Positions 1 to 16,640 of a stretch of DNA of 64,000 nt are shown here, piece after piece (the first letter of the stretch is position 1; each line of letters begins with the position of its first letter). The stretch is from positions 60,866 to 124,865 of the forward strand of contig JAZDCZ010000365.1 in NCBI GenBank assembly GCA_036679605.1. Reading direction: 5' to 3'. This DNA is from Gemmatimonadota bacterium. Its GTDB lineage: Bacteria > Gemmatimonadota > Gemmatimonadetes > Gemmatimonadales > GWC2-71-9. The position numbers were made by a program, and so were the translations under genes. The notes under the pieces were generated by a model. That model was given only the letters and a program-made list of their open reading frames with translations. It searched no databases and had not been told where the DNA came from.

Positions 1-1710
1 GAACGTGGCATAACGATTCTGTCGAAGAACACTGCTGTTCGGTGGAACGACGTGAAGATCAACGTAGTAGATACGCCGGGGCACGCCGATTTCGGTGGAG
101 AGGTCGAGCGGATCCTGCGGATGGTAGACGGAGTGCTCTTGTTGGTCGATGCGGCCGAAGGTCCGATGCCGCAAACTCGATTTGTGATGCGCAAGGCGTT
201 GGCGTTGAACTTGAAGCCGGTCATAGTCATAAACAAGGTTGACCGCCCCGACGCCCGTTCTGCAGAGGTTCACGACGAGGTATTGGAGCTGCTGTTAGAT
301 CTCGAAGCTAGTGACGAGCAGTTGGATGCGCCTTTCCTTTACGCCTCTGCGAAATACGGATGGGCGGCTAGGGATTTGCCGGAGGACTGGGATCCAGAGA
401 ATCACGACCTCACGCCTCTTTTCGAGACGATTGTGGAGGCGGTACCTGCGCCTCGAGCATACGCTGGACCCTTCCAGATGCTAGTCTCTACGTTGGACCA
501 TTCGCCGTATACGGGCCGCGTGGCCATCGGCCGGATCGAGCGGGGCAGTGTGACGGCCGGACAGCAGGTCGCGTTGTTGTCGCTGGGCGATCCAGGGTTT
601 GTTGCGCAGGATGAAGCGGTGCATGGGCGCGTACTCAAGTTGTATGGCTTCGAGGGTCTGGATCGAGTCGAGCTGGATACCGCCGCCGCCGGTGATATCA
701 TCGCGCTGACCGGGTTGGACGGAATAGAGATCGGCAAGACGGTGGCCGATGTCGATTGTCTCGAGCGGCTTGCAGGCATCGCGGTAGAAGAGCCCACGAT
801 CTCCGTCGAATTCATGGTGAACGATTCTCCTTTCGCCGGCAAGAGCGGGAAGTACGTCACGTCGCGCCAGATACGGGACCGACTTTACCGTGAATTAGAA
901 CGCAACGTGGCGCTTCAGGTAGACGACACTGAGAAGCCGGAAGTGTTTTCGGTCGCGGGACGGGGGGAGTTACATCTCGGAATTCTCATTGAGACGATGC
1001 GGCGCGAGGGGTACGAGTTTCAGGTGAGCCGACCGAGGGTAATCATGCGGCAGGATGCCGACGGCAAGGCGACCGAGCCATATGAAGAACTCGTGGTAGA
1101 TGTGCCGGAGGACATGGTCGGCGTCGTGATCGAAAAAATGGGTTCGCGCCGAGGTGACATGATCGATATGAGGAACCCGGGGCGGGGCAGCGTGAGGATG
1201 CGGTTTCGCATCCCTTCGCGTTGTCTATTCGGATTTCGCTCGGAGTTCTTGACTGATACCAGGGGTGAGGGAACATTGCACCACCGGTTTCTGGAGTACA
1301 GTCCCTGGGCGGGCCCGCTGGATGGCCGGTCGCGCGGTGTACTGGTTGCGGATCGTCAGGGCCAGGCGGTAGGTTATGGAATATTCGGGCTACAGGAGCG
1401 TAGTACGTTGTTCGTGGCGCCGGGCGACCCCGTGTATGAGGGGATGATCGTGGGAGAGAACGCCCGGGAGAGTGACATGGATGTCAACGTCTGTAAGGAG
1501 AAGAAGCTGACGAACATGCGTGCCTCCGGTTCCGATGACAACATTCTATTGGTTCCTCCTCGACGAATGACGCTCGAGATGTCGCTGGAGTACATCGCGG
1601 ACGATGAGTTGATCGAGGTCACGCCGGATGCGATCCGGCTTCGAAAGCGCGCGCTCAGTGTGAACGCGAGGAAGAAGGCTGTCCGCCAGGCACGTGCGGC
1701 GGCTAGGTAG
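1..1710 (+). CDS. typA: Translational GTPase TypA/BipA (5' end outside window)
   Basis: Frame open from base 1 ([11 protein letters not shown]), [36 protein letters not shown] and C-terminal [12 protein letters not shown]...[11 protein letters not shown] motifs. Confidence 0.97.
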
Positions 1711-1814
1711 AAAGGTGCATGACCCTTAGCGCGAGGAAATGAAGGAGTCATGTTGTCCCGACAGACGTCGACTTGGCCGGTCCTGGGCCTCACTGACGAC
1801 GATGACGATGAGGA

Positions 1815-1946
1815 ATGAACGACGAGCGTGATTTCGAAGAAGACGAGGTACTGGGTGACGACGACGGTGATGACGATGATGAATGGGAGGAGGACGAAGA
1901 TGAGTTGGAGCCGCACCGCAGGAAGCGGCCTGCCGAGTGGGAGTAG
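1815..1946 (+). CDS. Very acidic 43-aa peptide, possibly the frameshifted 3' part of a gene starting at 1750
   Basis: MNDERDFEEDEVLGDDDGDDDDEWEEDEDELEPHRRKRPAEWE; its ATG overlaps the TGA of a 22-codon ORF at 1750-1818 that has an AAGGAG RBS. Confidence 0.45.
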   Translation: MNDERDFEEDEVLGDDDGDDDDEWEEDEDELEPHRRKRPAEWE

Positions 1947-1966
1947 AAAAGGCGCGGCGGCCGGGG

Positions 1967-1995
1967 TTGGCCCGTCTGGCTACCGCGTCTAGATT
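1967..1995 (+). promoter_or_regulatory. Putative sigma70 promoter of tRNA-Ile
   Basis: TTGGCC-N17-TAGATT ending 14 nt before the tRNA. Confidence 0.5.
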
Positions 1996-2009
1996 TGTGT
2001 GTCCAAACC

Positions 2010-2083
<74 letters not shown>

Positions 2084-2131
2084 TTGCCGTTGCCGCAGAC
2101 AACGCAGATGGCACTGATCTACGCAGATGTA

Positions 2132-2166
2132 GCCCGCCGTGGTCCGAGAGACCGCGGTGGGTTTTT
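2132..2166 (+). terminator. Rho-independent terminator after tRNA-Ile
   Basis: CCCGCCGTGGTC / GACCGCGGTGGG stem followed by TTTTT. Confidence 0.7.
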
Positions 2167-2248
2167 GCGTGAACGGCCTCCGTCTATCCGCGGTGGTCAG
2201 TGTAATGAGTGGCCGGGTTGTTGTCATGGAGGACGGGACAGACATCCC

Positions 2249-2411
2249 GTTACACATCGAGCGCTAACCCGCTACTCAGAGGGATTCATAAGTGAGACTG
2301 CAATTGGTATTACCGATTCGGCTGGGACGACCGTATGTTTCAACGCCTTGAGATTGTTGAGATTATCGGGGATTACCCTTGCATGATATTCCGATACGCG
2401 GCCTGGGGAGA
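2249..2411 (+). repeat. Cassette-leader repeat, copy A (most diverged)
   Basis: Aligns with 9020-9196 (CATCGAGCGCT, GGGATTCA, GCCTTGAGATT.TTGAGATT.TCGGGG, GATATTCCG, GCGGCCTG.GGAGA); followed by GTTAGAC at 2446. Confidence 0.8.
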
Positions 2412-2528
2412 GCAGACCATGAGCACTCCGGATACAATCCTTATCGTTAGACGCCGCTTCAGAAACCGATATTCTGCGATGATCTTCAGATGCAAGAGCA
2501 CCGAGCACGTTCTGATTACGTCCCTTCT

Positions 2529-3593
2529 ATGACGATGCCTCGGCTGCTGCGATCGGCCAGGGCTGCGGCCCTGGTCGTCACGACGATTTCCGGCTGCGCA
2601 GATGCTCGTCGCGCACCGAGCACTGCCGAGTCTGTAACCCTCGTCCCCATGGATACGCTGGTTGCCACCGCCTCCGAGCTACTCGGCGGCGTGTACGACT
2701 TGGCGGTATCGCCGGACGGGGATGTTTATGTCGCGGACTATGGCTACAAGCACGTGCTGGTGGTCGGCCCCGACGGTGCGGTCCGCCGGACGATTGGCAA
2801 GCAAGGGTCGGGTCCTGGCGAGTTCGAAATGCCCTACGTCGTCTACGCCGGCGCGGATTCGGTCCGGGTGTTCGACGCCGCGAGCAATCGGGTGCAGGTG
2901 TTCGACCGCGCCGGTGGGCTGGTTCGGAGCTATCGGCTGGACGCACCCGGCCTCGGAGGCGGTCGTGACTTCCGGGACGACGGTTCGCTCGCCGCCACGA
3001 TTGGTGGCTTCGACAATGCGATGATCCTGGTGCTCGACGCGGCTGGCACCCGCGTCGGCAACTTCGGCGAACCAATCATTCCACCGGTGACCTTCTACGA
3101 CTTCACTGCGCTCAAGTCCGAGATACGGGACGGCCGCGTCCCCGATGCGTTCCGGAATCGGGCAACACTCGCCTGGGGCCCAGAGCAGTCGCTCTATCTC
3201 GTCTTCCTCGCCGAGCCCCAGGTCCGCCGGTACGCCGCCGCCGGAAGGCTTCTGTGGACTCGTACACTGGACGAGCCCGTGCTACGCTCGGCCCGAGAGA
3301 CGTTTATCCGCAAGAACATTGAGGAGCCGAACCCGTCCCGCATACACTCACTCCAGTACGTCACCGACGTCGCGGTGGTGGGTGGAGCCTTGTGGCTCCT
3401 GCTGAACACCGCCGATGAGGATGACGGGCTGCTGCTCGTGCTCCGTGCCGACGACGGCGCGGTTCGCCGCCGCGTCACCTTCCCGGGTTTGCCGAACACC
3501 GGGTACTTCGCGGTGGACCAGTCACGGCGAAGGCTGTACATAGCGCCGCGCGGTGAAGCGTCGGTACTGATTTTCGAGTTGCCGAGCTTGTGA
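2529..3593 (+). CDS. 6-bladed beta-propeller (NHL-like) lipoprotein
   Basis: Lipobox-like TISGC, IGKQGSGPGEF motif, NHL-type blades (DLAVSPDGDVYVAD, NRVQVFD). Confidence 0.8.
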   Translation: MTMPRLLRSARAAALVVTTISGCADARRAPSTAESVTLVPMDTLVATASELLGGVYDLAVSPDGDVYVADYGYKHVLVVGPDGAVRRTIGKQGSGPGEFEMPYVVYAGADSVRVFDAASNRVQVFDRAGGLVRSYRLDAPGLGGGRDFRDDGSLAATIGGFDNAMILVLDAAGTRVGNFGEPIIPPVTFYDFTALKSEIRDGRVPDAFRNRATLAWGPEQSLYLVFLAEPQVRRYAAAGRLLWTRTLDEPVLRSARETFIRKNIEEPNPSRIHSLQYVTDVAVVGGALWLLLNTADEDDGLLLVLRADDGAVRRRVTFPGLPNTGYFAVDQSRRRLYIAPRGEASVLIFELPSL

Positions 3594-3594
3594 T

Positions 3595-3951
3595 AGCACG
3601 GTTGTCCCAGGCAAGTTTGAAATCATCTATTTCATCCACGCGGTGAACTGTGCGCACGCCGAGTTCTACGGTCACCAGAGACTCGCCCATTATCGCGCGA
3701 CAGGAGAGTTCTTCGACGTGCCTATTGGGGTTGCCATCGATGCGATCGACGAGGTGGCCAAGCAGTTTGCCATCAACATGGACCTTGCTCGGCCTAAGAA
3801 GCGGGGCGGTTGGGGAGACAAGTGGCTCCCCCAGGCTTTCCGGCACGTGGTCAGTCCATGTCCTCATTGCGGGAAAAAGAACAAAATTCACATGCTTGCG
3901 GTGCCGTTTATCCCGAAGTGTGTAAAGTGCCGCAGAAATCTCTCGGGCTGA
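3595..3951 (+). pseudogene. 5'-truncated T5orf172/GIY-YIG-like protein with C-terminal Zn ribbon
   Basis: STVVPGKFEIIY...CAHAEFYGHQRLAHYRATGEFFDV resembles the C-terminal half of T5orf172; CPHC...CVKC; N-terminal half absent. Confidence 0.55.
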
Positions 3952-3977
3952 GGACGGATCGCCTCGTGCCGATAACG

Positions 3978-5186
3978 ATGTGCCAGCTCACGGCGCTGCT
4001 AGCATTCGCGGCGATCAGTACATTTGCCTGTGGCCAGGGCGAAGCTCCCGGGCCCTGGCTGGGCTCAATCGACACGCTGCCATCCGGCACGATCCGGACT
4101 GTGAACCCGGCCCAAGGAATCTGGAATCGCAGGACGGCCTGGCGCATCGCAGAGAACCTCAGGATTGGATCGCTGGACGGTGGACCCGAGGAGTTTGACC
4201 GGATCGTGGATCTGGACGTGGACGATTGGGGCCGCATCTATGTGCTCCTCGACCGCCGTGCCGAGATCCGTGTATTTGATGAACGAGGAAACTACGTTCG
4301 TACCATTGGTCGTCGAGGCGGCGGACCCGGCGAGTTCAGAGCCCCTGTCAGCTTGGACATAGACTCGCTTGGTCAGATATGGGTTACGGACCCGATGAAC
4401 CTTCGGTACACCGTCTTTGACTCAACTGGTACGTTCCGCTTTGGCCGAAGTCGCCACAGCAAGTTTTCTACTTTTGGAGGGGTTCGCGGTGATAGAGTCG
4501 GTGTCGATGGAGCATTGTTCGATGCGGATGTCCACGCTAGCGCGCCTTCCGTCTTTGAGTATCGCTTCTTCAAGCTCGACACAGCGTTCACGCCCATCGA
4601 TACCATAATCGTACCCCGGGGCAACCGCACTCCGTCGACCCGTCCACTTCCGTTCCGGCCATACAGTCCGAGAGGGCTCTACTCGCTGGATCTTAGAGGA
4701 TACGTGTGGTACGGTGTTTCCACCACTTATGAGGTTTTTCAGCTCGGTTTTTCCGGTGATACAGTTCGCTCGGTAGGTCGTGATTTCGAGCCGCAAGTGA
4801 TAACAGACGCGGAACGTGCGTCGATAGCTGAGGCTAGCCAACGTGGCAACCGGGAGATCGGGATTCCCGGTTCTAGGAGTAGTCCGGACATACCTACACA
4901 CAAGCCCGCAATAGCGCGGATATTCGTTGACTCGCGTGGCTATTTGTGGGTTGTACCGTATGGCGAAGTAGACGGTGAGACGCACAACCTCGATGTGTTT
5001 GATCCAGACGGGAAATATCTGGGTCAAGCAACAGCAGATTTCCCCATTGGTCTTGAGCCCAGCGGGATGCCGGCTGTGCTAAGAGGAACGCCGATAGTCA
5101 TCAGAGGTGACAACCTGTATGCGGTGACCTTCGACGATCTCGACGTACCCTTCGTTGTCCGAGCACGTATTCAAGTACGGAGGTAG
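3978..5186 (+). CDS. 6-bladed beta-propeller lipoprotein
   Basis: Lipobox-like STFAC, IGRRGGGPGEF, IFVDSRGYLWV, DVFDPDGKYLG, DDLDVPFVVR. Confidence 0.8.
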   Translation: MCQLTALLAFAAISTFACGQGEAPGPWLGSIDTLPSGTIRTVNPAQGIWNRRTAWRIAENLRIGSLDGGPEEFDRIVDLDVDDWGRIYVLLDRRAEIRVFDERGNYVRTIGRRGGGPGEFRAPVSLDIDSLGQIWVTDPMNLRYTVFDSTGTFRFGRSRHSKFSTFGGVRGDRVGVDGALFDADVHASAPSVFEYRFFKLDTAFTPIDTIIVPRGNRTPSTRPLPFRPYSPRGLYSLDLRGYVWYGVSTTYEVFQLGFSGDTVRSVGRDFEPQVITDAERASIAEASQRGNREIGIPGSRSSPDIPTHKPAIARIFVDSRGYLWVVPYGEVDGETHNLDVFDPDGKYLGQATADFPIGLEPSGMPAVLRGTPIVIRGDNLYAVTFDDLDVPFVVRARIQVRR

Positions 5187-5212
5187 CTTCGTGAGCATGC
5201 CTTTTAACCCGA

Positions 5213-5360
5213 AAACTCCGATTGTTATTACGTATCCGCTGTGACGGCTCTATCTTCCAATGCCTTGGATTGTCGAGATTATCGCTGGGGGAGACTCTTG
5301 CCTGATATTCGGGTAGTGCGGCCTGCGGAGATCGTGAACCCGTTACGCGCCGCGCGTAAT
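5213..5360 (+). repeat. Cassette-leader repeat, copy B (5'-truncated)
   Basis: AAACTCCGATTGTTATTACGTATC...GCGGCCTGCGGAGATCG...AACCCG-N10-CGCGTAAT closely matches 9068-9214. Confidence 0.85.
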
Positions 5361-5388
5361 ACTTGATAGAGCTTGAGGGGAGATCGTC

Positions 5389-6066
5389 GTGAAGCCGAAG
5401 GAATTGCTGGAAGCACTACAAAGAGTAATTGGTCTCTCAACAGATTCCGCTGTAGCGCGGCTAATTGGGCTTACTTCGGGTCGTGTAAGCCAATGGCGTT
5501 CTGGCAAGCGCGATTTAAGTGCTCGCCAGGTGGCAAACCTAGTGAAACGAGTAGCTTCATTAGCCGGAACCGAGCAACTCGGAAACGCTATTCGTCCAAT
5601 TGTTGAGTTGTACCCTGTAGATTGTGTCGCGTCGAAGCAAGATGCCCGCTGGCTGATTCTCCCGACGGATAAGCGAAAAAATCCCCGTCGGAACAAGCTA
5701 CGAAAGCACCTTGAAAAAGCAAAAGGCATCTATTTCTTCTACAACTCAGAAGGGGAAGTGGTATATGTAGGTCAGACCCAGAAACGTACTCTGTGGAAAA
5801 GAATGAATGAAACATTCAACCGAGAGGCGCAATCACATCAGGCATATGTTGTGCGGCATCCGTCCACAGGAAGCGCTTTTGTTCCCGCATGGAGTAAGCT
5901 GCGCCAGCCCGTCAAGCGAATTGTCTATCTGTATGATATCGCAGCCTATTTTTCAGCCTACGAGGTAGCGGAGCCACTCATAGACAATCTTGAAGCAATG
6001 ATAGTACGTGCTTTCTGTAATGACTTGGCAAATGTGAAAATGGAGAAATTCAAATTCAAGCTCTAA
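5389..6066 (+). CDS. XRE-like HTH / GIY-YIG nuclease fusion (gene cassette)
   Basis: N-terminal HTH (DSAVARLIGLTSGRVSQWRSG), GIYFFY...VVYVGQT...R and late E/N residues; the stop codon lies inside the attC R'' box. Confidence 0.7.
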   Translation: MKPKELLEALQRVIGLSTDSAVARLIGLTSGRVSQWRSGKRDLSARQVANLVKRVASLAGTEQLGNAIRPIVELYPVDCVASKQDARWLILPTDKRKNPRRNKLRKHLEKAKGIYFFYNSEGEVVYVGQTQKRTLWKRMNETFNREAQSHQAYVVRHPSTGSAFVPAWSKLRQPVKRIVYLYDIAAYFSAYEVAEPLIDNLEAMIVRAFCNDLANVKMEKFKFKL

Positions 6067-6179
6067 CAAAACACTCCAGACCGACGCTCAACACTTTGCC
6101 GGTTCTGTGTTCTCGCTGCGCTCCATATTCACACAAGAACGGGCAAACTGTTGAGCGCGGCTGAGCGTAGTCGTTATAC
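6061..6179 (+). mobile_element. Integron attC site (119 bp)
   Basis: CTCTAAC R'' box ... GTTATAC R' box, with a long imperfect palindrome (CGCTCAACA.TTTGCC.GTTCT / AGAAC.GGCAAA.TGTTGAGCG). Confidence 0.85.
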
Positions 6180-6243
6180 AACCCGACCACCGTCTTTGTG
6201 CTAGACTGCAGGTGGCCTTGAACTCACTATTTGGCGGCGTACC

Positions 6244-6576
6244 TTGAAGTTACCTCACAGTGACCGAGCCCAGATTCCATCGGAGAAGTTGCGTGGCTAC
6301 TTGCTCTCTTCGGAGCATCCGATCGGTAGGTTCAAGGCGCGGTTCTTCCACGCACTTGGCTACAAAGCGGAGAGTTGGGAGAAACTCGAACGAGACCTCG
6401 TCGATGCGGCCCAATCCGCGGAGGCGGAGCTGGTCCCGTCCCCGTATGGCGACAAGTACCTTGTTGGGTGTACACTTACAGGGCCGGCAGGATTGTCGGC
6501 CGGTGTGATCTCAGTGTGGATCCTGGCGCGCAGCCAGGATATTCCGCGCTTTATCACGGCATATCCTTCGGAGTGA
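6244..6576 (+). CDS. DUF6883-like protein (putative toxin/nuclease)
   Basis: IPSEKLRGYLL...HPIGRFKARFF...SPYGDKY...SVW...PRFITAYP pattern; paired with DUF4926. Confidence 0.75.
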   Translation: MKLPHSDRAQIPSEKLRGYLLSSEHPIGRFKARFFHALGYKAESWEKLERDLVDAAQSAEAELVPSPYGDKYLVGCTLTGPAGLSAGVISVWILARSQDIPRFITAYPSE

Positions 6577-6578
6577 TA

Positions 6579-6812
6579 ATGGACTACAAGACTCTCGATA
6601 CGGTGGTCCTAGACCGCGATCTTCCAGATCATTCGCTTCGGCGTGGAGACTTAGGTGCGGTGGTGTACGTCCACGAACCAGATGGGATCGAGGTCGAGTT
6701 CGTCACGGCATCGGGAAAGACCGAGGCGCTCGTGACACTCAGCTCCTCGGATGTACGACCTGTCGCCGAAACCGATCTGGTTTCGGTTCGTTCCTTCCCG
6801 AAATCAGCCTAG
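6579..6812 (+). CDS. DUF4926-domain protein (putative immunity/antitoxin partner)
   Basis: LDTVVLDRDLPDHSLRRGDLGAVV...EVEFVTASGKTEALVTL. Confidence 0.8.
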   Translation: MDYKTLDTVVLDRDLPDHSLRRGDLGAVVYVHEPDGIEVEFVTASGKTEALVTLSSSDVRPVAETDLVSVRSFPKSA

Positions 6813-6980
6813 CCGTCACAGACGGGTTGCATAACTCGACTAAGAAGTACCTTGTTGAGACGGTGCAGTTTCCCTGCGTGCTGCCATAGCCAGTTTTCAT
6901 CCCCACTCCCGCCGATCCCAGGCAACGCCCGAAGGATACTTCAAGAATGGTTGTGGCGGATTCCGGAGTGAAATCCAGCC

Positions 6981-7148
6981 ACGCCTATTTAAGTGCGGCA
7001 CTACGATGGTGTCGATTGTGGTGTCGATTATGGTGTCGATTGATACCGGTACATGACGATCTCAACGAAGCACGATGTGGGCAGATCGCGCGTTCTGTCT
7101 AGGAAATGGGCAAGGTGTCGTGATCCGATTGGCCTCGTAGCAGCCTGA
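6981..7148 (+). repeat. att-arm-like direct repeat, copy 1
   Basis: Near-identical to 7978-8135; three tandem GGTGTCGATT units; ends in GCCTGA. Confidence 0.9.
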
Positions 7149-7188
7149 GGCGTGTCGTTAGACGGCACGCAAGAGAGCGAGGCGTGGC

Positions 7189-7545
7189 TCAGATGCGTCG
7201 CTGACGTACGTGAGTACCATCCACGATACTGATGTGATCGCGCCAAGTCACATCGGACCGCGTCAGAAGATCTAGAAGCAAACGTGTGATCTCCTCTGCG
7301 CTTTTCGGGATGATGCGCAAGAGCAGAACACCGGCAGCCAGTCGGTCAGTGCCACGCACTGCAAGTTCGCCGAAGTCCCGATCGAAAGTCACAATGAGTC
7401 GGTCCTCACGAATCGCTCTTTCGACATGTCTCACATCTGCGGCGCCCGGCTCGGCCTCGGTGGTCGAATAGACATCGTGCCCTGCGGAACGCAGGGCACG
7501 GACGGTATCGAGGGGAATGTTTTCGTCTGCCAGCAACCGCATCAC
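7189..7545 (-). CDS. DUF5615 PIN-like toxin
   Basis: MRLLADENIP...LRSAGHDV...IVTFDRDFGEL...GVLLLR. Confidence 0.85.
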   Translation of the reverse strand: MMRLLADENIPLDTVRALRSAGHDVYSTTEAEPGAADVRHVERAIREDRLIVTFDRDFGELAVRGTDRLAAGVLLLRIIPKSAEEITRLLLDLLTRSDVTWRDHISIVDGTHVRQRRI

Positions 7546-7781
7546 GCGGCGCCGGGACGGACCGGGAGGAGCGTCTGATCGTGAAGCACTTCAGCCGCGT
7601 AGGCGAACACTGCACGAAGCGCATCATCGCCCAGCTGGGGGTAGTTCTTTTGGAGCTGTTCCTGTGACCAGCCTTCAGCCAACAGTCCCAGCACGAAATC
7701 GACGGCGAGCCGAGTTCCCTTGATGACGGGCTTGCCACCGACAACAGCGGGGTCGGCATGAATGTGCTCAGTCCAAGTCAC
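7542..7781 (-). CDS. DUF433 antitoxin
   Basis: DPAVVGGKPVIKGTRLAV...GWSQEQLQKNYPQL; 4-bp overlap with the toxin gene. Confidence 0.9.
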   Translation of the reverse strand: MTWTEHIHADPAVVGGKPVIKGTRLAVDFVLGLLAEGWSQEQLQKNYPQLGDDALRAVFAYAAEVLHDQTLLPVRPGAA

Positions 7782-7977
7782 CTGTCCCTCCTGGTCCCCT
7801 AAGGTACTGCGGGGGCGTGCCGTCTAACAAGCGCTGGCTGCCGGCGCGGTAGGGAGGGAGGTTGTGCGTATGGAGAGTCTGAGAATACGGACCACCGGTG
7901 CGTGACGTGCCGTAGGAGGACGTCGAGGAATTCCTAAGGGTCGATTGGCATACGTGCTCGTGTAACCATCGTTCCGT

Positions 7978-8135
7978 ACGCCTGTCTAAGTGAGTGCACC
8001 ACGATGGTGTCGATTGTGGTGTCGATTGATACCGTTACATGACGATCTCGGCGAACCACGATGTGGGCAGATCGCGCGTTCTGTCTAGGAAAGTGGGCAA
8101 GGTGTCGTGATCCGATTGGCCTGGTAGCTGCCTGA
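7978..8135 (+). repeat. att-arm-like direct repeat, copy 2, abutting the tRNA-Ile 3'-half duplicate
   Basis: Near-identical to 6981-7148; two GGTGTCGATT units; runs directly into GCCTGATAAGCGTGAGG. Confidence 0.9.
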
Positions 8136-8215
8136 TAAGCGTGAGGTCGGAAGTTCACCTGCCCATCCCCGTCTCACCCCGTGGTGCGCTAACGCGTTAA
8201 CTCTTCCCTGGCCCA
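8130..8215 (+). repeat. attR-like duplicate of the tRNA-Ile 3' half, interrupted by 42 bp
   Basis: 8130-8157 equals 2040-2067 and 8200-8215 equals 2068-2083. Confidence 0.9.
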
Positions 8216-8351
8216 TGACTTGAAACTGTGATCCCGCTTGGTGTTACGACATTAGGCAGGACTTCGCGTCGACGAAGCTGACAGCGCGTGTATTCATTGG
8301 TAGCACGATCTCGCTGCTTGTATCATACGTACAATGTATGTACATTAGGAA

Positions 8352-8648
8352 GTGGCTGAACTCCGCTTTGAATGGGACGAACGCAAAGAGACCTCGAACC
8401 GGCGCAAGCATGGTATCTCGTTCGACGAGGCGAAGACGGTCTTCGCGGATGACTGCGCGCTCTTGCTCGACGATCCGGATCACTCTGAGCAAGAAGATCG
8501 GTTCGTGTTGCTCGGACTAAGCTCGGCGCTTCGGACCTTGGTTGTCTGCCATTGTTACGGCGAACCAGATGAGGTCATTCGGATCATCTCGGCGCGGAAG
8601 GCCACACGACCAGAGCGACAGATCTACAATCGCAGGTGGCGCCAATGA
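8352..8648 (+). CDS. brnT: BrnT family toxin
   Basis: FEWDERKETSNRRKHGISFDEA...EDRFVLLG...IRIISARKAT. Confidence 0.92.
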   Translation: MAELRFEWDERKETSNRRKHGISFDEAKTVFADDCALLLDDPDHSEQEDRFVLLGLSSALRTLVVCHCYGEPDEVIRIISARKATRPERQIYNRRWRQ

Positions 8649-8872
8649 GAAAAGAGTATGATTTCACGAAGGCCCGGAAGAACCCGTATGCAAAGCGGCT
8701 GAAGAAGTCGGTGACGATCCGTCTTGATACCGACACGGTCGCGTACTTCAAGGATCTGGCGGCCGAAACGGGCATCGCCTATCAGACCCTGATCAATCTC
8801 TACCTTCGCGACTGTGCGGCGTCGCATAAGAAGCTGTCGATGCGTTGGGCGTCCAAGTTCGGTGCTGCCTAG
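8645..8872 (+). CDS. brnA: BrnA family antitoxin
   Basis: MRKEYDF...NPYAKRLKKSVTIRLD...YFK...YQTLINLYLRD; ATGA overlap. Confidence 0.9.
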   Translation: MRKEYDFTKARKNPYAKRLKKSVTIRLDTDTVAYFKDLAAETGIAYQTLINLYLRDCAASHKKLSMRWASKFGAA

Positions 8873-9019
8873 TACCTGTAAGGCCTTCGCTGTCAAGCGG
8901 CCGTAGCTAGACAACGCAGACTTTTTTGGTTTCCGTTTTGCGGTTCGTTTTCCAGCAGTGGCGTTATGGTTTCATTGCCAATGTGGTGCAAGAAAATGCT
9001 CTGCACGAAACTCCTCACT

Positions 9020-9214
9020 CGGGTTACCCATCGAGCGCTGACACGCTACCCAGCGGGATTCAGCGGCAAACTCCGATTGTTATTACGTATCGACTGTGAC
9101 GGCCCTATCTTCCAATGCCTTGAGATTATTGAGATTGTCGGGGGGAAGACTCTTGCACGATATTCCGTTAGGCGGCCTGCGGAGATCGGTAACCCGTCCG
9201 GGGAGTCGCGTAAT
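9020..9214 (+). repeat. Cassette-leader repeat, copy C (complete, with terminal inverted repeats)
   Basis: CGGGTTACC (9020-9028) and GGTAACCCG (9188-9196) are inverted; then N10-CGCGTAAT and GTTGGGC at 9217. Confidence 0.85.
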
Positions 9215-9244
9215 GGGTTGGGCGATCACCAATCGAGAATAGCG

Positions 9245-9670
9245 ATGACACATCTGTTATCAACGGAAGATAGAGATTTTCAGGCCCAGTTTGAGTCCCG
9301 CAAGTCTCCACCTGCGGAGTTCAATCATCGTGCGCACCTGAGACTGCCCTACGCTTACCTGGCCGAGCACGACACCGAAACAGCTCATCGATTGATGCGC
9401 GAAGCGCTGCAACACCTTCTCGAACATAACAGCGTCGATATTTCGAAATGCCATGAAACCATGACTCGAGCGTGGATTATGGCAGTACGGCACTTCCTGG
9501 AGGGGATTTCAAACTCCGAATCATCTGACTCATTCATTGAGCAGAATCCAACAATGCTCTATGCGAAAATCATGATGACGCACTACTCACCGGAGGTGCT
9601 CCTTTCGGACGAGGCTTGCGCAAGATTCGTTGAGCCAGATCTAGGCCCAATATCGAGATATGGTGGGTAA
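9245..9670 (+). CDS. Conserved hypothetical protein (gene cassette)
   Basis: FNHRAHLR...HETMTRAW...HYS...ARFVEPDL; bounded by GTTGGGCGA (9217) and TCGCCCAAC (9672-9680). Confidence 0.7.
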   Translation: MTHLLSTEDRDFQAQFESRKSPPAEFNHRAHLRLPYAYLAEHDTETAHRLMREALQHLLEHNSVDISKCHETMTRAWIMAVRHFLEGISNSESSDSFIEQNPTMLYAKIMMTHYSPEVLLSDEACARFVEPDLGPISRYGG

Positions 9671-9673
9671 GTC

Positions 9674-9769
9674 GCCCAACCAGCCGCTACAATGGACGCC
9701 TCAGCCGCTACGCGGTCGCGATTCGCTCCGGGCTGCGGCCTCCGCCGCCACTGAGCCTAGACGTTGGGC
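9674..9769 (+). mobile_element. Integron attC site (96 bp)
   Basis: GCCCAAC R'' box ... GTTGGGC R' box (perfectly complementary), with a GC-rich inner palindrome and CTGAG L'-like box. Confidence 0.8.
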
Positions 9770-9799
9770 TCCTCGCCCGTGAAAGGAGGGACCAAGAGA

Positions 9800-11026
9800 A
9801 TGAGAATGGGCCGTCACGTGCGGTTCTCGTTGAGTGACATCTTCTGCATGGGCGTGGGTCTTTGTGCCCTCTCTGTATGCACTTCGGCCTGTGGGAGCGA
9901 TTCGAAGATTTCGCAAACGGCTGACTGGACCGTGCGCGACAGCGCCGGAGTCACCCTGGTTTCCAACCACACGGACGGTTTGACACGCGGCTGCGTGACG
10001 TTTTCCCAAGACCCCGAAACCACCATACCCTCGAGTGGCTTTAGTCCCCCACTGTACCGTGTGCGAGGAGGAGTAGTGCTGGACGACGGCCGGATCGCCG
10101 TCTTGAATGCCGGGAACAAGGAACTCCTCTTCTTTGGAGCCGACGGCAGGTTTGAACGTGCGGTCGGTCGTTCTGGACGCGGCCCGGGAGAATTTGTCGA
10201 TCCGAGATGGCTGGGTCAGGGGAACAACGACACGTTATTCGTATGGGATGGTGGTTTGATGCGGCTCTCGACATTCGATGGGACGGGAGAGTTACTAGCG
10301 CTACATGAAGTGCGAGTCGGCGTTGAGGAGCGAAAGCCCATCGCGATCCGCGGACGGTTCGATGATGGCTCCTTCTTCTTCAGCCCCGGACCGCTGATGT
10401 TCTTTGACGGCACCGCCGGTATCTTGCGGTTTCCCGAAACGTACGGACGCTACAACGTTGAGACGCGTCAGGCGGAGCAGCTAGTCGAGGGGGCAAGCTC
10501 GGAGACGGTGGCTGGCCCGGGCGTGCCGGTGTACGAGCTGCCCTTCGGCAAGATGGACGTAGCGATCGCAAACGGCGACGCTGTGGTAATCGGCGACAAT
10601 GGCACGTCCATTTTGCGGTATTACGATCTACAAGGACAACTCCGCCGTATAGTGGAGTGGATGTCAGAACCGATTCCGATCACGGATCGCGACCAGAGGG
10701 CATACCGTCAGGATTTTGACGAATCAGTTCCGGCACGTTTTCACCTACCCGCCACTGCCCGATTTGCCAAAGAGCGACCCAGATTCTCGTCAATAACGAG
10801 CGATACGATTGGGTGGATTTGGGTACGATCATACACCGCGGGCTGGGAGTCCTCGGGCCATTGGCTGGTCTTTGATGAGGACGGCGTTTTGATATGCTCC
10901 GTCAACCCACCACCGGCTCGTCGATTCCGCCCGCTGCAGATAAGTGAGACGCACATGCTGGGCGTGCAGCGCAATGAGGACGGTGAGGAGACTCTGGTGC
11001 TTTATTCCCTTGTCCGCAACATGTGA
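9800..11026 (+). CDS. 6-bladed beta-propeller lipoprotein (cassette downstream of attC)
   Basis: GGAGG RBS, TSAC lipobox, VRDSAGV, VGRSGRGPGEF, WLVFDEDG. Confidence 0.8.
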   Translation: MRMGRHVRFSLSDIFCMGVGLCALSVCTSACGSDSKISQTADWTVRDSAGVTLVSNHTDGLTRGCVTFSQDPETTIPSSGFSPPLYRVRGGVVLDDGRIAVLNAGNKELLFFGADGRFERAVGRSGRGPGEFVDPRWLGQGNNDTLFVWDGGLMRLSTFDGTGELLALHEVRVGVEERKPIAIRGRFDDGSFFFSPGPLMFFDGTAGILRFPETYGRYNVETRQAEQLVEGASSETVAGPGVPVYELPFGKMDVAIANGDAVVIGDNGTSILRYYDLQGQLRRIVEWMSEPIPITDRDQRAYRQDFDESVPARFHLPATARFAKERPRFSSITSDTIGWIWVRSYTAGWESSGHWLVFDEDGVLICSVNPPPARRFRPLQISETHMLGVQRNEDGEETLVLYSLVRNM

Positions 11027-11265
11027 GACCACTCCTTCCGTCCTACACCGGAATGAGGAGAGGCAGTGAGACGCCGGCAGCTATCTTGCACGAAGGCTTA
11101 GCTGCTTGTTTGGCGATATGGCAATCGGCATCCCTGACTGTTGCTGATGGTGCTCGCAGTCTAACTGGCGCATGAAGCGTGACGAGCGCGGTAGGAGCAA
11201 TTGGATTGTTCGCATGGTGACATTGATTGGAACTGAGGCCGGTATCCTTAGGACTTGAAGAGGCT

Positions 11266-12276
11266 ATGAAGGCGATTGTCCAAGAGAAATACGGATCTCC
11301 TGATGATCTAGAGCTCCGAGAAGTCGACAAGCCGGCGGTCGGCGATGATGAAGTCTTGGTGCGGGTACGCGCGGCTTCGGTCCATCCGGATGTCTGGCAC
11401 GTCGTGACCGGGCAGCCTTATGTCCTTCGCCTGATGGGGGCTGGGTTTTCCAGACCCAAGAACCCGATCCCCGGCACAGACATGGCGGGAATCGTCGAGT
11501 CAGTCGGCAAGAGTGTGACACAGTTTCGGACGGGTGACGAGGTATTCGGGGAAACCATCGCCGTCAACTACTGGGCCAACGGCGGCGCTTTTTCCGAATA
11601 TGTGTCCGTTCGACACGACCTACTGGCGCTCAAGCCTGACAACATCACGTTCGAACAAGCCGCCTCCGTTCCCGCTTCCGGATTCATCGCCCTGTTGAAT
11701 CTCCGAGGAGCGAGGCAAGCCTTCCCAGGGCAGGAGGTATTGGTCAACGGCGCTGGGGGCGGAGTCGGTGGCCTCGCATTACAGATCGCGAAGGCCTACG
11801 GCGCGCACGTGACCGCGGTGGACATTACGAGCAAGTTGAGCATGCTCCGCTCATTGGGGGCAGACCAGGTCATCGATTACACCCAGGAGGATTTTACCCG
11901 TCGTGGCGTTCGTTACGATCTCATCTTCGATGTTCCGGGGGACCGCCCGTTCTCAGCTTGCAGGCGCGCACTCAAACCTGAGGGGAGATACGTGCCAATT
12001 GGACATGGTAGATTTGGCGCGTCAGGCAGGCGTGTTTTCGGACTCTTACCCCATTTTTTCAAACTGATGTTCCTCGCACGCTTCGTGAAGCAACTGCGAG
12101 GTCCGGGCTTACCGATGCCCACCAGGAAAGACGCAATGGCCGTGCTCAGGGAATTCCTCGAAGCTGGAAAGATCACACCGATCATTGACAGTACCTATCC
12201 GCTGAGTGAGGTCCGCGAGGCTTTCCGGCACATGATCGAGGATGAACTCCAAGGAAAAGTGATCATCATCCCATGA
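11266..12276 (+). CDS. NAD(P)-dependent MDR-family oxidoreductase (quinone-reductase-like alcohol dehydrogenase)
   Basis: MKAIVQEKYGSPD, PGTDMAG, VLVNGAGGGVG, GADQVIDY, GKVII. Confidence 0.9.
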   Translation: MKAIVQEKYGSPDDLELREVDKPAVGDDEVLVRVRAASVHPDVWHVVTGQPYVLRLMGAGFSRPKNPIPGTDMAGIVESVGKSVTQFRTGDEVFGETIAVNYWANGGAFSEYVSVRHDLLALKPDNITFEQAASVPASGFIALLNLRGARQAFPGQEVLVNGAGGGVGGLALQIAKAYGAHVTAVDITSKLSMLRSLGADQVIDYTQEDFTRRGVRYDLIFDVPGDRPFSACRRALKPEGRYVPIGHGRFGASGRRVFGLLPHFFKLMFLARFVKQLRGPGLPMPTRKDAMAVLREFLEAGKITPIIDSTYPLSEVREAFRHMIEDELQGKVIIIP

Positions 12277-12411
12277 CGATGACGGACACCGTTTTGTTTT
12301 TGGTGTGGTGATGTGGGCTCATTACGGCCAACGGTTTGGGCGACGTGGAATTCGCGCGTGAACTGATGGAGGAATTGGATGTGAACAATCACAATGTAGG
12401 AGCGGACGAAA

Positions 12412-12876
12412 ATGGCGAAACGAAAAATCAGAGTTGTTCAGCCCACCGACCAGGTCAAGGTGATGTTTGGAGCCGGTGATGATTACCGGTTTCTGGCTAC
12501 TGGAGACGATACCGATAACAGCTATTTCCTTGTTGAGGCTATTGTGCCTCCGGGAGGCGGCCCACCTCCACATATCCAGACGAGAGAGGAGGAAGCGTTT
12601 TACATACTCGAAGGGGTGGTTTCGTTTTATGGTGAAGACGGGGAAATCGAAGCTGGACCGGGAACGTACCTCAACATCCCGAAGGGAGCCAAGCATAGCT
12701 TTCGTAACAACTCGAACGAGACCGTCCGTATGCTGTTTTTCTTTGCTCCTGCCGGAATCGAAGGACTTTTCGACGCAATGGCCACGACGAAAGAATCAGC
12801 CGGTGATATTGAGTCCACGATGGCAGCTTTGAATACATTGGGGAAGAGTTATGGCGTGGAATATTTTGCAGAGTGA
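12412..12876 (+). CDS. Cupin-domain protein
   Basis: GPPPHIQTREEEAFYILEG...PKGAKHSFRN. Confidence 0.85.
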   Translation: MAKRKIRVVQPTDQVKVMFGAGDDYRFLATGDDTDNSYFLVEAIVPPGGGPPPHIQTREEEAFYILEGVVSFYGEDGEIEAGPGTYLNIPKGAKHSFRNNSNETVRMLFFFAPAGIEGLFDAMATTKESAGDIESTMAALNTLGKSYGVEYFAE

Positions 12877-12880
12877 TCTC

Positions 12881-13723
12881 CTAGCGGCCGCGCCAGACAC
12901 CTTTGGCCCGAGCTGCCACGGCACCGATTAGTCCTTCGAGCGCCTTTCGTGCCCTGCGCATGGAGTAAGCGTAGAGGGCTCGGAATCCTTTCACGCCGAG
13001 GCCCCCGCCTACCAAGGCACCCCCGACCGCGGCGACCGGTCCAATCCCAATTGCCACTCCAAGCGCAATTCCCACACCGAGGCCCGCACCTCCGGTGAGT
13101 GCCGTCGCTAACAATCCCAGAACGAGGCCGATGTTGTGCGCCGTTGCGGGGCTGTGCACCGTCATCTCACAGGAGGACGTAGACCCCTCGATAGGCCGCA
13201 GTGAGACGAACACCTGCCGAAGCCCTGCATCTCTCGCTGCGAACGCGAACCCTTGGGTGGAGAAGGGAGTACTGTGTCCTTGAATATCGAAGACCAGTAG
13301 GCCTCGATTGAGCGGATCGCCCTGCTGGTCGGTCAACGTCAGGCGAAAAGGTTCGTCGGGAAACACGGTCTCCATCGCCGAGAACACTTCTTGGGGTGTT
13401 GCTTCGATCACGCGCCGGACGGTAAGCGTATTGGGCGGATGATTCAGGAATCTCCGGGCAAGGGTATTGCTCTTCTCCACGTTGGGGAGTGTGCGCTCCG
13501 CACGCAGGTCGGCTAGGGCGGCTTCCACGAATTCGTTGGCGATGCCGGCCTCCAGTGCCGCGGAGCGAACGTGCGTGAGCGCATACCCCGGTGGGGGCAT
13601 GGCAGCGCCATGGACCTCCGGTCCCTCGACTCTCCCGGCTGCCTCTGCCTGAAGCTGAGCAGCCCGGTCCCACAGACGGGCCGCCTCTTCCTCGCTGAGA
13701 ATCTCGGGATCGCGCTCCGTCAT
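12881..13723 (-). CDS. Hypothetical membrane protein
   Basis: 280-aa ORF; LWDRAAQLQ...AALEAGI N-terminus; Gly-rich C-terminal hydrophobic helices. Confidence 0.65.
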   Translation of the reverse strand: MTERDPEILSEEEAARLWDRAAQLQAEAAGRVEGPEVHGAAMPPPGYALTHVRSAALEAGIANEFVEAALADLRAERTLPNVEKSNTLARRFLNHPPNTLTVRRVIEATPQEVFSAMETVFPDEPFRLTLTDQQGDPLNRGLLVFDIQGHSTPFSTQGFAFAARDAGLRQVFVSLRPIEGSTSSCEMTVHSPATAHNIGLVLGLLATALTGGAGLGVGIALGVAIGIGPVAAVGGALVGGGLGVKGFRALYAYSMRRARKALEGLIGAVAARAKGVWRGR

Positions 13724-13992
13724 GTGGAACCTGAACCTTTCCTGTTCGTTGCTGCGTTAGACAGAGGGGGAAGCCCCTGCGAGCATTGGCTTGATTCGAG
13801 AGAACCTAAGGGATATGCTTGCCTAGCGGAGCCGTAGGTGCCACGATGGGGTCGATCATGTCGTCAACAATCACCATTCGTTATGCATTAACGTGCGCCA
13901 TGCTTGCTTCTCCGGCATGTGGCGCAGGCCCTGAAAGTGGTCGGGACGCCGTGCCGTGCGAGACCGCGGACACCTCAAGGGGAGACAGACTC

Positions 13993-14346
13993 ATGAGCCA
14001 AGCTGAGCAAGACCGTCGTGTGGACTACATTGAGTTTCTGACCACAAACATTGAGGAGACCAAGAGGTTTTACTCGAAGGTTTTCGGTTGGGAGTTCACT
14101 GACTATGGTCCTGATTACACAAGCTTCACCGACGGTCGATTAACCGGCGGTTTTACTGTTGCGACGGAAGTAACGGCAGGCGGTCCATTAGTCGTGCTCT
14201 ATTCCACGAATCTGGAAGAGATCGAAGCTAGTATCAGAGAGAGCGGGGGGCAGATCGTCCGAGAGGTATTCGAGTTTCCGGGTGGACGACGCTTTCACTT
14301 CACCGATCCGAGTGGGAATGAGTTGGCTGTTTGGTCAGATCGATGA
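13993..14346 (+). CDS. VOC/glyoxalase family protein
   Basis: DYIEF...KRFYSKVFGW...FPGGRRFHFTDPSGNELAVWS; GGAG RBS. Confidence 0.9.
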   Translation: MSQAEQDRRVDYIEFLTTNIEETKRFYSKVFGWEFTDYGPDYTSFTDGRLTGGFTVATEVTAGGPLVVLYSTNLEEIEASIRESGGQIVREVFEFPGGRRFHFTDPSGNELAVWSDR

Positions 14347-14460
14347 TTTCTAGCCTGAACCACAGCGGTGACGGGTGGGCGCTGCCGCCGACCAGCGCGG
14401 TACGGAATCTAGTTTTTCTTAGGTCCGCTAGGTGGCCCGGTTATGTCTGGCCCATTGATA

Positions 14461-15087
14461 CTACTTGGTACCCGAGGCCACGAAGATACTGATCGCGGCG
14501 GATTCCCCGCCGCTCGACTCAACGCAACAGTCCTCTCCGACACAATCCACTACCACGTCATGGAGCCCGGCTTCGCGAAACCAACGGGCTACATCATCGC
14601 GGGCGAACCCAAGCCATCTGTCGTTATGTTCTTCCCGCAGGAATTCGAAGTCGTGTTCGTCGACGTCTGTTATCACCAGCACGCCTCCGGGACGGAGTAT
14701 GTCTGTCATAGCCGTGATCGCCGCCGGAGGGTCTTCCACGTGGTGTAGATACATGTTGGCAAACACGTAGTCTACACTCTCTTCGTCGATGCCGAGGTTC
14801 GAGTCGCCGCCCACTCTGTACTGTACGTGACCCGCGGTCGAGAACTTCTGCTTCATCTGTTCCAGCATGCGCTGCGATTGGTCCACGGCCACGACTTCTA
14901 AGCCTCGCGCCAACAGCGCCTCGGTCATGAACCCCGTGCCCGCTCCGATGTCGGCCGCAAGTTGTCCGGGTTTGACGTCGGCTACATCGAGTGCACGGTC
15001 CCGCACGGCTTCAGGGAAGAAGCTCTTGCGCATATCGTCCCAGGCATCCGCCACACCATCGAAGTATTCCTTGCTTCCTTCTGTCAT
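14461..15087 (-). CDS. Class I SAM-dependent methyltransferase
   Basis: DIGAGTGF motif I, VAVDQS, NMYLHH, LRPGG. Confidence 0.9.
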   Translation of the reverse strand: MTEGSKEYFDGVADAWDDMRKSFFPEAVRDRALDVADVKPGQLAADIGAGTGFMTEALLARGLEVVAVDQSQRMLEQMKQKFSTAGHVQYRVGGDSNLGIDEESVDYVFANMYLHHVEDPPAAITAMTDILRPGGVLVITDVDEHDFEFLREEHNDRWLGFARDDVARWFREAGLHDVVVDCVGEDCCVESSGGESAAISIFVASGTK

Positions 15088-15215
15088 CTGACCCTCTACT
15101 CTGAGGAGTAACACACCGGATTAGATAGTCGGGTGGGGTCACCGAATCCGTCAAATCCAAAGCGGAGAATAGTGCACGGTGACCAAATCGTGCAAACCTT
15201 CTAGATTCAGCGGCT

Positions 15216-16640
15216 ATGTCCTCAGCCGCCGATCGAGCATCAATGTCCGAAAAGTCGTTCCAGTTTTGGCCCGCCGTCCGAGAGGCGATCCGTGGAACGC
15301 AGCAGGACTTCACCTCCGGGCCAATCGGCCGGGCGATTCTGTTGCTGGCGGTCCCGATGGTACTGGAAACCGCGATGGAATCGGTGTTCGCCGTGGTGGA
15401 CGTGTTCTTTGTGTCGCGTCTGGGCCCCGAGGCGATCGCCACAGTAGGACTCACAGAATCGATGCTCACACTGATTTACACGGTGGCACTGGGTTTGAGC
15501 ATCGGTGTCACTGCGATGGTGGCGCGACGCATCGGAGAGAAAGACCCCGACGGTGCCGCTCGTACTGCCGTCCAAGCGATCGCCCTCGGAATTGGCGTCG
15601 CCGCGATCCTCGGCGTCGTGGGGGGGATGTTTGCACCACACCTGCTCGGCCTGATGGGGGCAGCGCCCGAGGTGATCGGACCGGGAGCCGCGTACACTCG
15701 CGTCATGCTCAGCGCCAACGCCACCGTGCTTTTGTTGTTTCTGATAAACGCAATCTTCCGCGGTGCGGGCGATGCGGCCATCGCGATGCGGATGCTGTGG
15801 CTTGCCAACGGAATAAATATCTTTCTGGATCCCGCGCTCATTTTTGGCATCGGACCTTTTCCCGAACTCGGCATCCAAGGCGCTGCTATTGCGACCAACA
15901 TCGGGCGCGGCACGGCTGTGCTCGCCCAACTCTGGGTCCTGTCGCGTGCAACCGGCCGAATCAAGATCGCCGCCCGACACCTGCGACTGTATCCGCAGGT
16001 GATGTGGGAACTCATTCGGTTGTCGGGAACAGGCATGTTCCAGGTCTTCATTGGGATGGCGAGTTGGATCGGGTTGATCCGCATCTTGGCCGGGTTCGGT
16101 AGCGAGGTTCTCGCGGGCTACACGATCGGCATTCGCGTCATCATCTTCGCGCTGTTGCCCAGTTGGGGGATGAGCAATGCCGCCGCCACCATGGTAGGTC
16201 AGGCGCTCGGCGCCAAGAAGCCAGATCGGGCCGAGCGTTCAGTGTGGATCGCAGGATTCTACAACATGATCTTCTTGGGAACGATAGGTCTGCTGTTCAT
16301 TCTATTCGCGCCACAGATCGTCTCCGTGTTCACCAGTGAACCCGAACCCGCGCGCTACGCCGTGCTGTGTCTCAGGATAGTGAGTTCGGGATTCTTGTTC
16401 TACGCCTACGGCATGGTGCTCACCCAGTCGTTCAACGGAGCAGGGGACATGTGGACTCCCACGATCATCAATCTGTTTTGCTTCTGGCTGTTCGAGCTGC
16501 CTTTCGCATACGTGATGGCCTACGTGTTCGATGTTGGACCGGTCGGGGTGTTCGTTGCCATGACCGTTGCGTTCTCATCCTTGGCTCTGGTGAGTGCGGT
16601 AGTGTTTAGGAGGGGCAAGTGGAAGAACACGGTGGTGTAA
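15216..16640 (+). CDS. MATE family efflux transporter
   Basis: About 12 hydrophobic segments; LAVPM, VD.FFVSRLG, RGAGD, NIFLDPALIFG, VGQALGA. Confidence 0.92.
   Translation: MSSAADRASMSEKSFQFWPAVREAIRGTQQDFTSGPIGRAILLLAVPMVLETAMESVFAVVDVFFVSRLGPEAIATVGLTESMLTLIYTVALGLSIGVTAMVARRIGEKDPDGAARTAVQAIALGIGVAAILGVVGGMFAPHLLGLMGAAPEVIGPGAAYTRVMLSANATVLLLFLINAIFRGAGDAAIAMRMLWLANGINIFLDPALIFGIGPFPELGIQGAAIATNIGRGTAVLAQLWVLSRATGRIKIAARHLRLYPQVMWELIRLSGTGMFQVFIGMASWIGLIRILAGFGSEVLAGYTIGIRVIIFALLPSWGMSNAAATMVGQALGAKKPDRAERSVWIAGFYNMIFLGTIGLLFILFAPQIVSVFTSEPEPARYAVLCLRIVSSGFLFYAYGMVLTQSFNGAGDMWTPTIINLFCFWLFELPFAYVMAYVFDVGPVGVFVAMTVAFSSLALVSAVVFRRGKWKNTVV

Follow-up and report, generated by a model that had tools for sequence, protein, structure and literature searches.

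The repeated module and its 3' edge

The DNA analysed here, hereafter the window, is a stretch of 64,000 nucleotides (nt) from a Gemmatimonadota bacterium (GenBank assembly GCA_036679605.1, contig JAZDCZ010000365.1, positions 60,866 to 124,865). Its first 11 kb are a variable island behind a tRNA-Ile gene and the remainder looks like ordinary chromosome. The island carries three copies of a non-coding repeat of ~150-200 nt, which we call the module (M). An original prediction, made from the letters of the window, had placed these copies at about 2249, 5213 and 9020, and they were confirmed by BLAST and by a family profile. By the extents of the profile, copy A covers positions 2247-2452, copy B 5205-5370 and copy C 9022-9215; as features, B was delimited at 5205-5364 and C at 9022-9216. 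All window features located in this text are on the plus strand unless another orientation is given. Contigs designated by C and a number belong to the source genome (G000) when no genome is named, and G with a number denotes genomes of the same bacterial family, G062 being the sister species.

The stretch 9020-9216 was searched by BLAST against its own 6.7-Mb genome. Copy B (5213-5343, 87% identity, E 4.6e-37) and copy A (2249-2411, 79% identity, E 4.9e-31) were recovered, together with copies D (C162), E (C91), F (C161) and a half copy G (C165), which gives a total of seven with identities of 70-87% between them. A profile of these seven found relatives in the same genome (E 4.8e-4 and 8.1e-4), called M2, and the search with M2 found window copy B at E 2.9e-4. 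There are at least 15 M2 copies by BLAST, and they can be aligned with M over ~220 columns. The combined M and M2 profile produced 23 matches at E<=1e-3 (12 near-full and 11 partial) spread over 12 contigs, in agreement with the multi-copy platform that had been predicted. Outside the genome the module was scarce. The BLASTN comparison put forward with the original prediction, so productive at home, yielded over 400 family genomes one match of 30 nt; the M profile gave one weak match (E 0.005) over 150 family genomes; and exact-pattern scans of genome and metagenome contig collections, with two patterns each, gave no module match. Beyond the own genome, the non-coding part of M2 was seen only in G062.

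The copies differ by several 1-nt insertions or deletions and the module is therefore not protein-coding; a leader peptide or small open reading frame was discarded on the same ground. Their 5' ends vary, the profile starts falling at 3-5, 16-17, 32 and 43. Copy A, delimited by BLAST and profile, has a 5' extension (2249-2290) and a core up to 2411, followed by a foreign tail of 34 nt (2412-2445) and a terminal GTTAGAC; it is a hybrid whose last 34 nt come from another small repeat family. Copy B is truncated at its 5' side and spans profile positions 43-207. Copy C holds an L-box-like GCGTAAT located 2 nt 5' of the crossover. The motif AACCCG-N10-CGCGTAAT is common to B and C, as had been noticed before, and in the looser form AAC-N15-CGT(A/G)A(T/C) it extends to E and F, the spacing being strict and the spacer sequence variable in the four copies.

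The small repeat in the tail of copy A, GAGCACTCCGGATACAATCC.., takes the place of the normal 3' end there. It was also found at C278:1335-1374, C276:91835-91874 and C426:42165-42201; it terminates in (G/A)TTAGRC, and on C278 it precedes a hicBA pair.

On the 3' side, similarity between the copies stops at G|TT. For the junction alignment the conserved GAACCCGTTA..ACT(T/A) served as anchor in 12 copies, and the three that enter a shared element resembling an insertion sequence (IS) were set aside, leaving nine; the anchor pattern missed two more copies, window copy C among these. The mean pairwise identity of the nine was 75% in the 30 nt to the left of the G-triplet versus 26% in the 30 nt to the right, and the crossover triplet was GTT in seven of them. 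Two to four nt before the GTT stands GC(C/G)(G/T)AA(C/T), similar to an inverted R box and possibly an L box, and upstream of the junction the module repeats GATTGT(T/C)G, reminiscent of direct repeats bound by the integron integrase IntI. Both likenesses refer to attI1, whose L box and IntI-bound upstream direct repeats are taken from the description in PMC12901181; this source and the two others cited below were used in excerpt. The junction cores are GTTAGAC at 2446-2452 (A), GATAGAG at 5365-5371 (B) and GTTGGGC at 9217-9223 (C), located as predicted. The cores of A and C fit GTTRRRY; that of B does not.

Cassettes start exactly at G|TT in three cases. They were detected with our own crude box-and-fold scan for attC sites rather than with the model of IntegronFinder, and this holds for the other attC results given here unless stated otherwise. 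Behind copy B there is a gene at 5389-6066 (225 amino acids, with weak GIY-YIG and HTH Pfam matches below the curated cut-offs) and an attC-like hairpin at 6061-6179, with outer boxes CTCTAAC..GTTATAC, inner boxes GCTCAAC..GTTGAGC and a lower-strand fold of -31.2 kcal/mol as single-stranded DNA. Behind copy C there is a gene at 9245-9670 (141 amino acids, no Pfam family) and a 96-nt attC site at 9674-9769 (GCCCAAC..GTTGGGC). The third case is an M2 copy on C243, followed by GTTATGC, a gene for a GMC-oxidoreductase of 608 amino acids and a 121-nt attC (GCATAAC..GTTATGC); here the junction is complementary to the R'' box of the attC in 7/7 positions, the non-consensus base included. The predicted complementarity between core and next R'' box was complete in copy C (7/7, with GCCCAAC at 9674) and reached only 6/7 in copy B (with CTCTAAC at 6061). 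On C251 an integrase remnant and half an M2 are followed by attC-like sites. The hairpins at 6061-6179 and 9674-9769 are the only two of attC type that the scan found in positions 1-16000 of the window and lie 3.5 kb apart, so that the cassette runs are short.

Integrase remnants and an attI-type reading

At three loci of the own genome (C173, C276 and C251), M2 is located directly behind, and on the same strand as, the 3' end of an integron-integrase gene, comprising the last ~35 codons and the stop codon. The distance from this stop to the crossover G is 189 nt on C173. According to the profile, 8 of the 12 near-full copies begin at the point equivalent to that stop codon, and copies A and C retain the 20-nt motif TAACCCGCTAC.CAG that follows it in M2. 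A locus of the sister species (G062:C39) shares the upstream gene of C276 and looks orthologous; its integrase remnant is longer, reaching back to the HTLRHSFATHLL box, and is broken by a stop and frameshifts. The internal deletions of the integrase gene differ among C173, C276 and G062. The remnants show 86-88% identity to IntI of G331 and G349 versus 75-81% to the intact IntI of their own genome. A 5' edge GTTAC was considered as a crossover inside the integrase gene and rejected, since G062 shows that such edges are internal deletions.

The 3' part of the integrase was matched in 149 of 401 family genomes, a tally that includes G285 and G237 (flagged unpublished). Of six intI loci of the family that were examined, four (G020, G349, G331 and G069) have attC arrays downstream of the intI 3' end. 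In G349, G331, G108 and G069 a 7-mer GTTAGxx is found 72-320 nt after the intI stop codon, and all 7 of its bases are complementary to R'' in the first attC; the attC scan flagged no array at G108 or G066, and the junction and attC of G108 were read by eye. In the intact integrons of these relatives the interval between the intI stop codon and G|TT holds the attI, and it is therefore exactly this interval that the module family fills.

The prediction had described the system as integrase-less. This is true for the 125-kb contig of the window, where no tyrosine recombinase match was found, but not for the genome, which has two intact integron integrases above the TIGR02249 cut-off on C73 and C407. 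These two loci look like alleles (87% identity), and their attI, placed where the loci cease to be alike, reads ..CAGATAATA|GTTAG.

An attI motif, CAGATAAT..A|GTTAG, was observed at C73:1426-1495, on C407 and in G349 (L084) despite the opposite orientation of intI, which is divergent on C73 and C407 and directed toward attI in G349.

Considering that M2 lies behind integrase remnants, that similarity breaks at G|TT and that cassettes start at this point, the most likely identity of the module is an attI-type region for cassette insertion, left as a relic of an integron after its attI-ward integrase gene decayed or was deleted. We assign this reading a probability of about 0.6. The attI platform of the original prediction is thus largely supported by the G|TT break, the cassette starts in B, C and C243, the M2 copies behind integrase remnants and the position of attI in relatives, and the window copies are probably relics, no longer live platforms. 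As to the mechanism, an integrase gene would have been transcribed toward its attI, and the module would be the stretch from its stop codon to the G|TT crossover. The corresponding IntI would once have bound the L-box-like GC(C/G)(G/T)AA(C/T), the R box GTTRRRY placed 2-4 nt further on and the upstream GTT-containing repeats, and it would have inserted attC-bearing cassettes at the G|TT edge. The integrase gene would then have decayed through internal deletions, and the copies could have multiplied either as attI-ended cassettes of the "delta-attI type" or via recombination between arrays. The module may also carry an outward promoter.

A number of observations weigh against the attI-type reading. 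A single attI is expected per integron (PMC3607928, excerpt), and the 23 profile matches in the genome, three of them within 7 kb in the window, would need a multiplication step; these copy numbers are possibly inflated, as the assembly has 434 contigs, 6.3% contamination and ~2x the size of its relatives, and a second strain may contribute copies. The attI of C73 and C407 shows no similarity to the module, and therefore no cognate integrase is known. No full-length intI adjoining any M or M2 was found in the own genome, in G062 or in the scanned contig collections. In the genomes and collections searched, the non-coding part of the module was found only within this genus. At the junction, copy B has GAT and one other copy GCT instead of GTT, and between the L-like box and GTT there are 2 nt in C but 4 nt in other copies, a difference the prediction had correctly pointed out. 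Its statement that the module heads each cassette run was not supported: of the 14 family copies whose downstream DNA extends for 1 kb or more, the crude scan found only three that precede a gene and an attC with matching R''. Copies A, D, E and F have no attC recognisable downstream by the scan, nor is there any between A and B, and the genes that follow these four are ordinary-looking (a propeller, an unknown protein, Trypsin_2 with HsdM and an RHH-like protein).

It is also conceivable that the modules are live, that is, that a lineage-specific attI was multiplied into many dispersed capture platforms or attI-bounded cassette ends, served by an integrase elsewhere in the genome and each perhaps with its own outward promoter. 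We regard this version as doubtful. An active copy would mean that cassettes can be captured without dependence on a single platform, and with live modules one enzyme would serve many cassette-entry points.

Other explanations and known systems

In all six full M copies the next gene is co-oriented and lies 29-90 nt downstream of the module; similarity between copies stops near the expected transcript start, the AAC-N15-CGT(A/G)A(T/C) motif of B, C, E and F keeps a strict spacing around a variable spacer, and the upstream genes often end in a terminator-like repeat (family S, see below). All this would fit a portable promoter/operator region, spread before accessory genes by homologous or illegitimate recombination and with no role in site-specific recombination. 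However, a scan confined to the sigma-70 consensus (9/12 matches, 16-18 nt spacing) detected no site inside the three window copies, and the best promoter candidate, TTGTCG-N16-19-GATATT, has a variable spacing and is disrupted in M2. A promoter would explain neither the remnants of integrase genes in front of M2 nor the break exactly at G|TT with its R''-complementary 7-mers, and we find it unlikely as an alternative; it is compatible with an attI-type region because attI regions can hold promoters. The original prediction had suggested, as a possibility, mobility of the kind shown by miniature inverted-repeat transposable elements (MITEs), that is, a non-autonomous transposable element. The family is indeed multi-copy and dispersed over 12 contigs, and copy C has the terminal inverted repeat that had been reported, with 12 of 13 positions of its core matching and GGGTT at both edges. 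Nevertheless, this repeat is private to C and not a trait of the family, the 3' arm being ATCG(C/T)GAACCCG elsewhere; the ends of the copies are not uniform, with the scattered 5' starts given above; for a recent burst, identities of 70-87% would be low; and no transposase was found whose ends match. An IS630-like element that abuts two M2 copies is an insertion into their CTAG and not a parent element. A MITE is in consequence quite improbable.

The module could alternatively be a structured small RNA or a cis-regulatory leader. Blocks of invariant bases extend over 150 nt, and RNAalifold proposed long-range pairs, three of them with compensatory changes, but the consensus energy was only -11.65 kcal/mol with a positive covariation term. 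Folding was as stable as that of shuffled sequence on both strands (z from -1.5 to +1.75), and the module has no match in Rfam, which recognised only tRNAs in the window and gave no module match at E<=0.1 in eight loci. A 38-nt mini-hairpin at the 3' side exists in B and F only. Nor is there a hairpin of the attC type (R''-L''/L'-R'), as the ends of the module do not pair (z near 0). A structured RNA thus seems very remote to us, and we think equally little of an origin as the arm, on the attL side, of an integrative island that targets tRNA-Ile, with binding sites for integrase or Xis. The latter would agree with the location of copy A 165 nt after tRNA-Ile, with that of copy C, which a degenerate copy of the tRNA 3' end precedes by ~800 nt, and with the tRNA-Ile repeats that relatives hold at this locus, yet no tRNA gene occurs within 4 kb of B, D, E, F or G, and the M2 copies follow integron-integrase remnants, not tRNAs.

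Little is known of attI sites beyond the clinical integron classes, and they are treated as single-copy. Taking the module again as an attI-type relic, its closest counterparts can be compared through the excerpts of the three sources. In the "atypical" Treponema-type integrons, intI is transcribed toward attI (PMC3607928). The order of integrase gene, attI and cassettes on one strand is the same in four relatives and in the loci with remnant and M2, and so is the GTTRRRY R box at the crossover, matching the R' of attC sites (PMC3607928); unlike those integrons, the integrase here is reduced to ~85 codons at most or gone, and the attI-like region is present many times per genome instead of once. 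The delta-attI cassettes of class 1 and class 2 mobile integrons consist of pieces of attI1 or attI2 of 11-238 bp in clinical resistance arrays and recombine with IntI1 (PMC12901181). They share with the module a truncated attI of varying length that stands between array genes in place of attC, with a constant 3' end at the crossover and a variable 5' extent (PMC12901181), whereas the module is a lineage-specific sequence of an environmental chromosome.

Clusters of attC sites without an integron integrase, known as CALIN, are defined by attC only (two or more such sites within 4 kb, with intI absent nearby), and intI pseudogenes were near only 15 of 279 of them (PMC4889954). The window may resemble a CALIN in its two attC-like sites with no integrase on the contig; it differs in retaining a recognisable attI-like relic, with recognisable integrase remnants in other parts of the genome. 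Cassettes outside a complete integron and joined at G|TT are also a feature of insertion into secondary or genomic (attG) sites (PMC12901181, PMC4889954), but such sites are short and mutually unrelated, while the left flank here is a conserved family of 190 nt. It should be added that IntegronFinder seeks only the exact attI sequences of classes 1-3 (PMC4889954). What sets the module apart from these known systems is its copy number, together with its chromosomal and lineage-specific nature and the lack of a known cognate integrase. Homology, the location behind remnants of integrase genes and the sharp break at G|TT make the module recognisable as a chromosomal attI-like region, of which there are two dozen copies. 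Under the attI-type reading, the family would give a concrete route by which CALIN arise and would be a natural counterpart, in an environmental genome, of the clinical delta-attI cassettes.

The tRNA-Ile island and neighbouring repeats

The tRNA-Ile (GAT) gene, identified by ARAGORN and Rfam at 2010-2083, stands behind typA and is an island integration hotspot beside copy A; relatives such as G407 hold, at the same locus, several to many 45-nt repeats of the tRNA 3' end. In the window, a degenerate second copy of the tRNA 3' part, split by ~37 nt, forms a direct repeat at 8115-8215. The first gene behind copy A (2490-3593, on the strand of the module) encodes a DUF5128 six-bladed beta-propeller (Pfam E 2.3e-5), and a brnT/brnA toxin-antitoxin pair (8352-8872, Pfam E 6.6e-27 and 1.2e-10) is placed upstream of copy C. 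Judged by Pfam, the island encodes typical array cargo: three DUF5128 propellers, a weak GIY-YIG-like protein, DUF6883/DUF4926, DUF433/DUF5615 and BrnT/BrnA. The DUF433/DUF5615 (PIN-like) pair is in reverse orientation, bracketed by inverted GTTAGACGGCACGC / GCGTGCCGTCTAAC and flanked by a 150-nt direct repeat (6998-7148 and 7996-8135, 93-94% identity) inside which a 12-nt unit, GGTGTCGATT, is repeated in tandem; the second copy of the direct repeat runs into the tRNA fragment.

Repeat family S occupies 8863-9015, abutting copy C, and has at least 10 copies in the genome. It is 150-230 nt long and begins right after the stop codon of the upstream gene with an R''-like YTAAC, continuing with CCTATAAGGCCTCCGCTGTCAAGCGG..TAGCTAGACAAC and a terminator-like hairpin. 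At six loci or more it is immediately adjacent to the module or M2, and it was also seen on C251, C173, C278, C243, C273, C5 and C161. In the family it was found in 18 of 401 genomes (own included) belonging to eight genera, with 70-86% identity. S was rejected as a long attC, as it does not fold end to end; as a structured RNA, with no Rfam match and 0 compensatory pairs in 12 sequences; and as the N-terminus of an integrase, with no blastx support at E<1.

Metagenome contigs from runs X1-X3 were compared with the window at a likeness of 85. Positions 8266 and 9023 are joined in one X2 contig (side 57, intervening letters unread) and positions 9688 and 11266 in one X3 contig (side 28), and the remaining joints had sides <30 or mapped to other repeat copies; these are weak hints that brnT/brnA with S, and the gene at 9764-11026, vary between strains.

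Other elements were observed next to M, M2 or S copies. An IS630-like element, with the end TGGACTGTAACAATTG.. and an HTH-type transposase start on C311, is inserted at the CTAG of the ACTAGTT spacer in two M2 copies, whose GTT crossover is thereby destroyed, and the same end follows three unrelated sequences. The element is located at C276:1-110, C278:1-110, C319, C292 and C311:51960-52330. C292 was rejected as an IS at an M2 junction, because it encodes SnoaL-like and amidohydrolase genes and the shared sequence is the IS630-like end. In G062, two genes and an S copy sit between the integrase remnant and M2 (C39, 6560-7760), with an 18-nt direct repeat, TAACCCGCTRCGCRGCGT, on both sides. A match to domain V/VI of a group II intron (51.6 bits) lies between two S copies on C251 (L043) at 6208-6286, and on C91 (L028) a fluoride riboswitch was found at 2234-2304 of the minus strand, upstream of a crcB-like gene and ~1.7 kb from copy E.

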